Virus record (IMG/VR): IMGVR_UViG_2718218305_000006
Reading direction: 5' to 3' (one strand)
DNA from: a virus
Lineage: Duplodnaviria; Heunggongvirae; Uroviricota; Caudoviricetes
Length of the DNA: 64,000 nt
Made by a program: the position numbers and the translations under genes. The notes under the pieces were generated by a model. That model ran no database searches, was not told the origin of the DNA, and worked only from the letters and a program-made list of their open reading frames with translations. Numbering within the stretch: the stretch's first letter is position 1; each line of letters begins with the position of its first letter. This document shows positions 31,631-32,226 of this stretch, in pieces.

Positions 31631-32062
31631 ATGTTTGGAATCTTCAAAAAGAAAACCCGCAGAGCGGCAACGGAAATTAAAAAGTTTGAAAAACGCGATC
31701 TGGCACAGGTGGTGATTAACGCCGCATACCTGGTGGCCTGTGCAGATGGTGAATGTGAGGCATCCGAGAAAGCGAAGATCGAACAGGTACTGCGTAATCA
31801 GCCTGCGCTGTCCGCGTTTACGTCAGAAATTAATGCGATTAGCGCAACCATTATCGGTCAGCTGGATACGAACTTTAAAACTGGTCGTCGTGCGGCGTTA
31901 CGTGAGATTGAGGATGTGAAACACGATACGCGTGAAGCGGAAGATGTGCTGGATGTGGCGGTGGCCATTGCGGAGGCAGACGGCGAAATTGAGCCGGAAG
32001 AGCGCAAGGTGCTGGAAGAGATTGCCGGTGTTCTGGGTCTTCGTCTGGAGAATCACCTGTGA
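31631..32062 (+). CDS. TerB-like domain protein
   Basis: 143 aa from ATG 31631 with two ADGE motifs (..VACADGECEASEKAKIEQVL.. and ..IAEADGEIEPEERKVLEEIAGVLGL..). Confidence 0.6.
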   Translation: MFGIFKKKTRRAATEIKKFEKRDLAQVVINAAYLVACADGECEASEKAKIEQVLRNQPALSAFTSEINAISATIIGQLDTNFKTGRRAALREIEDVKHDTREAEDVLDVAVAIAEADGEIEPEERKVLEEIAGVLGLRLENHL

Positions 32063-32226
32063 CGGTAAAACTGCGCCTGGCTGTGGCTGCACTCCTGCTG
32101 TTTCTGGTGGTGATGGTGGATTTCACCAGCAGAATCATGTCGGTGCTGGCGGATGGGGTGCTGGTCTGCGGCATTGTGGTATTGCTGTGGCCGGTGATAA
32201 AAAGAAACAGCCTGCATAATGCTTGA
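32059..32226 (+). CDS. Small two-helix membrane protein, translationally coupled to TerB-like gene (GTGA overlap)
   Basis: 55 aa VTVKLRLAVAALLLFLVVMVDFTSRIMSVLADGVLVCGIVVLLWPVIKRNSLHNA; not in ORF track (<60 aa). Confidence 0.35.
   Translation: MTVKLRLAVAALLLFLVVMVDFTSRIMSVLADGVLVCGIVVLLWPVIKRNSLHNA

Follow-up and report, generated by a model that had tools for sequence, protein, structure and literature searches.

The tciA and tciB genes at the Shiga toxin site of an Escherichia coli O157:H7 prophage: a coupled TerB and DUF3927 pair with a possible role at the inner membrane during lytic growth

The window analysed here is a stretch of 64,000 nucleotides (nt) from the IMG/VR virus record IMGVR_UViG_2718218305_000006 (Caudoviricetes), and its positions 31,631 to 32,226 hold a TerB-family gene followed directly by the gene for a 55-residue membrane peptide. 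The two open reading frames (ORFs) are almost certainly prophage copies of the catalogued phage genes tciA and tciB, and the window is prophage DNA of Escherichia coli O157:H7. The genes are translationally coupled through a 4-nt GTGA overlap, they stay together across very different phages, and every position in which they can be placed is a lytic-cycle transcription unit. We propose, with a probability of roughly 0.4, that tciAB is a minimal Ter-like inner-membrane module of lytic growth, most likely directed against superinfection or membrane insult.

The identity of the pair is clear from existing records. Between 31400 and 32540 the sequence agrees at 100% identity with many O157 genomes, among them EDL933 (NZ_CP008957, 1906207-1907347), where the same gene calls are found, and a single copy of the two genes is present in the window. 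The EDL933 RefSeq record, made with the Prokaryotic Genome Annotation Pipeline (PGAP), gives identical boundaries and names the products "tellurite resistance TerB family protein" and "DUF3927 family protein", and homologues are labelled tciA and/or tciB in the phage records of JLK-2012, 434, P1, D6 and Pollock. An earlier, sequence-only reading of this DNA had offered the pair as an unrecognised accessory system. Its observation is accurate, yet it describes genes that are already catalogued, named in P1 and annotated routinely by PGAP and PHROGs. According to the P1 GenBank notes and a paper citing the P1 genome publication, the names tciA and tciB were given by homology only, and the 'tci' name goes back to reports of toxicity and inhibited cell division for Ter-cluster components (PMC4319500). 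The genes themselves would not surprise a specialist; the interest of the pair is its function. The elements of the pair are as follows.

31618..31622, plus strand: Shine-Dalgarno-like AAGGA, 8 nt 5' of the tciA ATG (direct sequence reading)
31631..32062, plus strand: tciA, encoding a 143-residue TerB-family protein, with an ATG start and the stop TGA at 32060-32062
32047..32050, plus strand: Shine-Dalgarno GGAG for tciB, in the 3' end of tciA, 8 nt 5' of the GTG (direct reading)
32059..32226, plus strand: tciB, for a DUF3927 membrane peptide of 55 residues; its GTG start overlaps the stop of tciA

The GTGA overlap, which the sequence-only reading had placed correctly, together with the GGAG inside tciA 8 nt before the GTG, is the classic layout of translational coupling. 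Among 177 fetched loci having a DUF3927 ORF, a TerB-family ORF was also present in 172. The tciB start lay at most 11 nt from the tciA stop in 170 of these 172 loci, with the offset expected for a 4-nt overlap in 162, and GTG was the tciB start in 159 of the 170. These counts owe their weight to the diverged cases, because near-identical E. coli prophages make up most of these loci. Ordered and abutting or overlapping tciA-tciB genes were found in P1, JLK-2012, D6, Pollock, ChrisDB and LMessi, and the pair also occurs in the N4-like phage FSL SP-076 and in prophages of Enterobacter, Franconibacter, Buttiauxella, Pantoea and Rosenbergiella. Furthermore, an exhaustive profile search recovered three distant DUF3927 members (P0229, P0188 and P0143), and each is encoded directly 3' of a TerB gene. 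The pair is thus near-invariant across enterobacterial phages as different as lambdoid, P1/D6, N4-like virulent and Erwinia jumbo phages. Its conservation across prophages and phages, diverged ones included, argues that the two genes act as one functional unit.

The TerB assignment of the larger protein, TciA, holds over nearly its full length. It matches the Pfam TerB family PF05099 at 53.4 bits (gathering score 24.4) over residues 31-138 and PHROG 632 at 1e-68 over positions 1-143 of 143. A profile built from nine phage homologues matched PDB 2JXU_A, the solved Klebsiella TerB, at E=1.2e-16, with residues 14-137 of the query aligned to 20-144 of the 153 in the chain, and TciA is of the same size as bacterial TerB. 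The nine homologues come from lambdoid, P1, D6, N4-like, jumbo, Pseudomonas and Vibrio phages, and despite their divergence the acidic residues D39, E46, E66, E92, D95, D117 and E124 are invariant among them. ADGE-type paired acidic motifs are present in both halves of the TerB domain, at residues 38 and 116, as the sequence-only reading had noticed. The N-terminal 22 residues are basic (+9/-2) and the body, predicted to be helical, is acidic (-25/+12). Across 63 unique coding sequences from related loci, the ratio of non-synonymous to synonymous divergence (dN/dS) of tciA was 0.04-0.17 where the proportion of synonymous differences (pS) was above 0.05, and about 0.04 where synonymous divergence was 0.2-0.5; tciA is protein-coding and under very strong purifying selection. 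Mass spectrometry of purified preparations of P1 virions has detected TciA peptides (PMC9024508), and a TerB entry was not found in the text-file supplements of an EDL933 ribosome-profiling study.

The smaller protein, TciB, is very hydrophobic and basic (pI 10). It matches Pfam DUF3927 (PF13064) at 62.3 bits, against a cut-off of 25, and the 'TciB-like' family PHROG 1470 at 4e-30 over positions 1-54 of 54. Alignments show a conserved core, DFTS(R/K)xMSxLADG, and a conserved WPxxK. Hydropathy gives two hydrophobic segments, at about residues 5-20 and 26-47, and the charge distribution is compatible with a hairpin that has both termini in the cytoplasm (N-in/C-in). Among 45 unique coding sequences from related loci, tciB dN/dS was 0.29-0.40 at pS above 0.05. 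Values well under 1 for both genes indicate that both are protein-coding and constrained; the small ORF is a conserved gene. A few tciB copies are truncated or frameshifted (one ends in ...VVLL and a stop, another reads ...MVEFHQQNHVG...), so some of the many prophage copies are decaying. The possibility that TciB is a fragment of the membrane protein TerC was considered and rejected, at an hhalign probability of 0.2%.

The DUF3927 family is small, with 119 cluster representatives recovered when 1.84 billion representative proteins were searched with a profile. Most of the full-length ones are about 50-65 residues long, and the known hosts of its members are restricted to Enterobacterales and their phages. 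A species-level genome scan gave 16 loci. All 13 from isolate genomes belonged to Enterobacterales, and the remaining three are short contigs from metagenome bins, two of them labelled Bacillota and Veillonella. In complete E. coli genomes the 596-nt pair was matched in 839 of 5426 (~15%), and in 801 the match covered 80% of its length or more. The number of matching places per carrier genome has a median of 6 and a maximum of 10, apparently one place per lambdoid prophage, and several IMG/VR source genomes each give two separate contigs holding it. O157 genomes have 4 to 7 matching places, and P1 and N4-like phages such as Pollock have single copies of the pair. Plasmid matches are mostly to non-mobilizable replicons of ~75-100 kb (129 of 135 records are non-mobilizable), which we read as P1-like phage-plasmids.

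The position of the pair is not conserved, and every placeable position is a lytic-cycle transcription unit. A late-operon setting between Q and the lysis genes, noted in the sequence-only reading, is not a defining property; it is found in O157 prophages, JLK-2012 and LMessi (the last with a Q-like antiterminator), and it does not extend to the distant members. The pair stands just after cro in two lambdoid-type contigs (L179 and L180), before the primase gene in a third locus (L181), downstream of the C1-controlled ban promoters in P1 and in the early region of N4-like virulent phages. In the Erwinia jumbo phage ChrisDB it lies in a tRNA cluster near the start of the genome record.

A further recurrent feature is that tciAB lies within or adjoining phage tRNA genes in unrelated phage types. 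The tRNAs concerned are Asn/Thr/Ile2 in P1 (locus L004, 849-2509) and D6 (L009, 528-2294), Asn/Thr/Gly in JLK-2012 (L001, 3792-4786) and Trp, Cys, Tyr, Gln, Ile and Met in ChrisDB (L006, 886-3277); loci L164, L166, L167 and L178 show the association too. This could reflect common hot-spots for cargo genes, joint transfer or a functional link.

In O157 prophages, the slot occupied by tciAB is the slot of the Shiga toxin (stx) genes in related phages. In the Shiga toxin phage 933W, Q and pR' are followed by the ileZ-argN-argO tRNAs, a terminator and stxA2B2, and beyond a gap come the SASA esterase gene and the lysis genes S and R. The corresponding features of the window are listed below.

29343..29909, plus strand: Q-like antiterminator (DUF1133 / Phage_antitermQ; Pfam, PGAP), which defines the late operon
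30467-31180, plus strand: gene for a 237-residue AraC-family regulator, which follows a small ORF and lies between the Q-like gene and the tRNAs
31209..31284, plus strand: tRNA-Ile, anticodon CAT, ileZ-like (ARAGORN, Rfam tRNA at 72.5 bits, PGAP)
31385..31461, plus strand: tRNA-Arg (TCT), argO-like (ARAGORN, PGAP, Rfam, 933W homology)
31474..31503, plus strand: intrinsic-terminator-like hairpin (31474-31493) and T-run (8-bp stem with 6 GC pairs, TTTTTGT tail)
32231..32403, plus strand: STnc100-family prophage small RNA (sRNA; Rfam RF02076 at 104.7 bits, gathering score 47)
32428..32454, plus strand: intrinsic-terminator-like hairpin (32428-32446) and T-run, between the sRNA and the esterase gene
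32540..34390, plus strand: gene for a DUF1737 / SASA esterase / DUF6645 protein (Pfam, PGAP; homologous to the 933W esterase), the right neighbour common to Stx phages
34838..35044, plus strand: class II holin (PGAP; 93% identical to S of 933W), the lysis cassette's actual holin

When the window was compared with 933W by BLASTN, homology covered 31205-31509, that is, the tRNAs and the terminator, and restarted at 32242. This break falls exactly at tciAB and so marks a cassette that replaces stxA2B2 between conserved flanks, which upholds at the nucleotide level the earlier suggestion of an stx-equivalent site. The left flank is common to Stx phages, with 87% identity to the 933W tRNA region at the tRNA-Ile, and the terminator-like hairpin at 31474 has the position of the terminator annotated 5' of stx in 933W. 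No sigma-70-like site was found between this terminator and tciA. The pair would accordingly be expressed mainly by Q-mediated read-through after induction, as is stx2.

The surroundings of the pair are also conserved as a cassette. In a set of 113 non-identical related viral contigs, a tRNA gene lay within 600 nt 5' of the pair in 75 of 110, an STnc100-like sequence lay within 300 nt 3' in 82 of 90 and the esterase gene came next in 83 of 90. The STnc100 sRNA begins 5 nt past the tciB stop and is part of this conserved cassette, not of the pair; a 31-residue ORF at 32219-32314 is probably no gene because the sRNA covers it. An antisense ORF of 166 residues (31875-32375, minus strand) spans tciA, tciB and the sRNA. 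No intact gene is annotated at this place in RefSeq, where the only minus-strand feature nearby is a pseudogene fragment (L003, 10022-10164), and this ORF is most likely spurious.

Further upstream, the AraC-family protein has its best NCBIfam match to YdeO (2e-30, well under the family cut-off), with GadX next, and a promoter-like site lies near its gene at 30404-31. It presumably recalls the prophage-borne regulators of acid resistance and type III secretion in enterohaemorrhagic E. coli (EHEC). In EDL933 the STnc100 family is present in multiple copies and expressed (PMC5331693), and it has been tied to the PasD sRNAs in a 2026 preprint. RusA, TerB and a DUF1627 protein have been described as conserved neighbours of the PasA/PasC prophage sRNAs (bioRxiv 10.64898/2026.05.13.724894). 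By Pfam and PGAP, TerB and RusA genes are present in the window and a DUF1627 gene in the matching EDL933 prophage region (L003, 1757-2473), and a Pas sRNA may therefore lie near the pair. Other RefSeq accessory genes of the same EDL933 prophage (L003, 4511-5130 and 15499-15813) encode Hok/Gef, NirD/YgiW/YdeI stress-tolerance and PerC-family proteins, the last a regulator.

How might such a pair work? TciA would be a cytoplasmic, helical and acidic protein with a basic N-terminal tail, and from what is known of the family its two ADGE-type motifs may bind a divalent metal or another ligand. TciB would be made right after TciA from the common mRNA and would insert into the inner membrane, probably as an N-in/C-in hairpin or as an oligomerising helix with a conserved polar stripe (D21, R25, S28 and D32). 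There it could serve as a membrane dock or working partner that recruits TciA or is regulated by it, much as TerC is the partner of TerB in bacterial ter clusters. In this prophage, behind a terminator in a Q-dependent late transcript, the pair would be made mainly after induction, and its role would most likely lie in conditioning the infected cell's inner membrane or guarding it. Insults to be guarded against could include DNA entry by superinfecting phages, pore-forming colicins, and membrane-acting host defences or abortive-infection effectors. In a sharper form that we regard as somewhat doubtful, TciA and TciB would be a two-protein system, a TerB sensor with a DUF3927 effector or anchor, that excludes superinfecting phages or colicins, or neutralises membrane-acting host immunity, during lytic growth, and would represent the smallest natural unit of TerB plus a membrane partner.

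Several lines of evidence point in this direction. A complex of TerC with TerB and membrane association of TerB have been reported (PMC11003894, PMC12054061, bioRxiv 2022.05.11.491447), the anti-phage systems Bunzi, Shango and Dionysus contain TerB domains, and Iyer et al. proposed that phage-borne Ter components act in competition with superinfecting phages (PMC7824862). The logic of a membrane partner is supported by the Vibrio phage vB_VpaP-MS02 (L008, 378-1926), in which a gene for a TerC/Alx-family membrane protein lies directly 5' of TerB and DUF3927 is absent, as well as by the basic tail of TciA and the basic character of TciB. Lytic timing is supported by carriage in N4-like phages, by the ban promoters of P1, by the loci after cro and before primase and by the stx2 slot. 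The pair is kept in lytic units by strictly virulent as well as temperate phages, and a role at the membrane of the infected cell is consequently the most likely one. The stress or envelope module that the sequence-only reading had suggested thus stays the most plausible interpretation, with the amendment that it would probably serve the infected cell and not the lysogen.

Other observations weigh against this interpretation. The partnership of TciA and TciB is not obligatory, as each gene is known alone. Intact tciB without tciA is found in phage 434, in 2B8 and in loci L174 and L170. In 434 (L002, 2138-3125) and in 2B8 and a related contig (L174, 1637-2639) it stands behind the gene for a 247-residue protein with multiple transmembrane (TM) segments, and in two prophages a DNA methyltransferase gene is followed by intact tciB or a remnant of it (L170, 2860-4150; L176, 2654-4090). 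Similarly, Pseudomonas phage AF carries TerB alone, without tciB. No genuine TerB-DUF3927 fusion proteins were found among the 119 DUF3927 representatives, and physical interaction of TciA with TciB is putative. Long DUF3927 matches were considered as fusions and rejected, since they consist of TciB behind the frameshifted C-terminus of a TerB protein or look like chimeras.

Structure prediction and the literature add to these reservations. The AlphaFold2 (AF2) model of TciB, from a 9-sequence alignment, is one uninterrupted helix over residues 3-54 with a mean predicted local distance difference test (pLDDT) score of 90.8, and it contains no hairpin. Of the two hydrophobic helices proposed from the sequence, the two hydropathy segments therefore stand and a hairpin is plausible, while their separation into two helices is not reproduced by the model. 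A single helix would place D21, R25, S28 and D32 on one face, which suggests a stripe for oligomerisation or ion binding. For TciA, the single-sequence AF2 model is all helical and of low confidence (pLDDT 59.5, predicted template modelling score 0.27). P1 tciA, tciB and tciC were non-essential in a CRISPR interference screen (PMC10695390), and the operon is a variable region of P1-like phage-plasmids that about half of subgroup 1 has lost (PMC9603915). Late expression is an odd time for superinfection exclusion. Among the PADLOC-DB 2.0 models, TciA gave only a weak partial match (PDC-S48, E=0.005, 35 residues) and TciB none. No experiments on tciA or tciB function were found in the literature searched, in which DUF3927, tciA and TerB with superinfection exclusion had annotation-level mentions only. 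The authors of the Pollock genome note could assign TciA no role in that presumably lytic phage.

Of the rival explanations, metal homeostasis survives best, and we consider it unlikely. TciA would sense or buffer Mn2+, Zn2+ or Ca2+ and, with TciB or host TerC-family proteins, adjust cation flux across the inner membrane in favour of phage replication or enzyme metalation. This would fit the seven invariant acidic positions of TciA, the conserved Asp in the hydrophobic region of TciB and the TerC gene adjoining TerB in the Vibrio phage. In Klebsiella pneumoniae, moreover, terC adds to Zn/Mn resistance and ter genes are induced by Zn/Mn, but the same paper doubts that TerC is a Zn/Mn efflux transporter (PMC12054061). 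Metal binding by TciA is itself putative, TciB has no detectable TerC similarity by hhalign, and a 55-residue peptide would be an unlikely transporter on its own.

A toxin-modulator pair, one of the functions raised in the sequence-only reading, has little probability in our estimate. TciB would be a small membrane-damaging peptide and TciA its co-translated inhibitor. TciB would resemble the two-helix toxin GhoT in size and shape, and a putative antidote gene followed by a small hydrophobic one, with a 4-nt overlap, is the usual layout of a toxin-antitoxin operon. The very tight linkage of the genes would be expected as well, and the toxic, division-inhibiting Ter-cluster components that gave rise to the name also speak for it (PMC4319500). 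The idea is weakened by the loci that hold intact tciB without its putative antidote, namely phage 434, 2B8 and L174, and L170 beside a methyltransferase. Antitoxins with a TerB fold are not known, Pfam shows no DNA-binding domain in TciA, and PADLOC gave no meaningful match. Virulent N4-like and jumbo phages keep the pair, and addiction makes little sense there.

An accessory role in lysis timing, in which TciAB would modulate the proton-motive force or holin triggering in an antiholin-like manner, is more improbable again. In lambdoid phages the pair does lie in the late transcript just 5' of the lysis cassette, and TciB is holin-like in size and hydrophobicity. Against the idea stand the settings at a distance from lysis genes (behind cro, ahead of a primase gene, the ban operon of P1 and the N4-like early region), the separate class II holin of the window at 34838-35044, and the absence of any Pfam holin match for TciB at E up to 1.

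Lysogenic conversion, by which tciAB would give its host tellurite resistance, is very unlikely, even though the product name 'tellurite resistance TerB family protein' invites it and EHEC strains are typically tellurite resistant. There is no terC, terD or terE in the neighbourhood, strictly virulent phages carry the pair, a terminator lies upstream with no promoter detected, one paper gives terC-terD as the minimal functional unit (PMC12054061) and the authors of the PMBT3 study suspect that a lone TerB gives no tellurite resistance (PMC8421299).

Returning to the inner-membrane module, what goes beyond the existing annotation is the near-invariant coupling of TerB with DUF3927 over five very different phage types. 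To this are added the restriction to lytic units, the TerC alternative in the Vibrio phage, the multi-copy state in EHEC and the exact exchange of the cassette with stx. If the reading as a two-protein exclusion system is true, tciAB would offer a tractable model for the long-unexplained function of Ter and TerB. In that case the lambdoid prophages resident in an EHEC genome, where the pair is matched at a median of 6 and up to 10 places, would have a single membrane-protection function in common. In addition, such a small unit could be an easy experimental route to the action of TerB domains at membranes, which bears on Bunzi, Shango and Dionysus.

The closest known relative is the tciA-tciB(-tciC) operon of P1 (NC_005856). 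It has the same PHROG 632 and 1470 families, with TciA 40% and TciB 50% identical to the window proteins, and the same gene order, abutting or overlapping genes and phage tRNA genes nearby; D6 TciA is 50% identical to that of the window. P1 differs in having tciC, for a 35-residue single-TM peptide, where the window has the STnc100 sRNA after tciB. A TciC-like ORF is not present at the window locus, and tciC is apparently specific to P1 and D6. The settings differ as well, since the P1 genes lie downstream of C1-controlled ban promoters and the window pair in a Q-dependent late operon at the stx slot.

The terZABCDE cluster of tellurite resistance, phage inhibition and colicin resistance likewise has a terB-type gene followed by the gene for an integral membrane protein, and an inner-membrane complex of TerB and TerC has been reported for it. 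TerC, however, has 7 TM segments and is unrelated to the 55-residue DUF3927 peptide of the window. No paralogues of TerD, TerE, TerZ or TerA were found at the window locus, and the lack of nearby terC- and terD-family genes rules it out as a ter operon, the neighbours being tRNAs, the AraC-like gene, the sRNA and the esterase gene. Superinfection exclusion is also known from small inner-membrane proteins that phages encode, such as T4 Imm and HK97 gp15, which are not needed to form plaques and act without a TerB partner; no sequence relationship to TciAB is claimed. Bunzi, Shango and Dionysus share with tciAB the combination of a TerB-type domain and membrane components, for which membrane surveillance has been proposed. 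They differ in having effectors, ATPase/helicase partners or a pore-forming toxin, and in that TciAB is carried by phages, virulent ones included.

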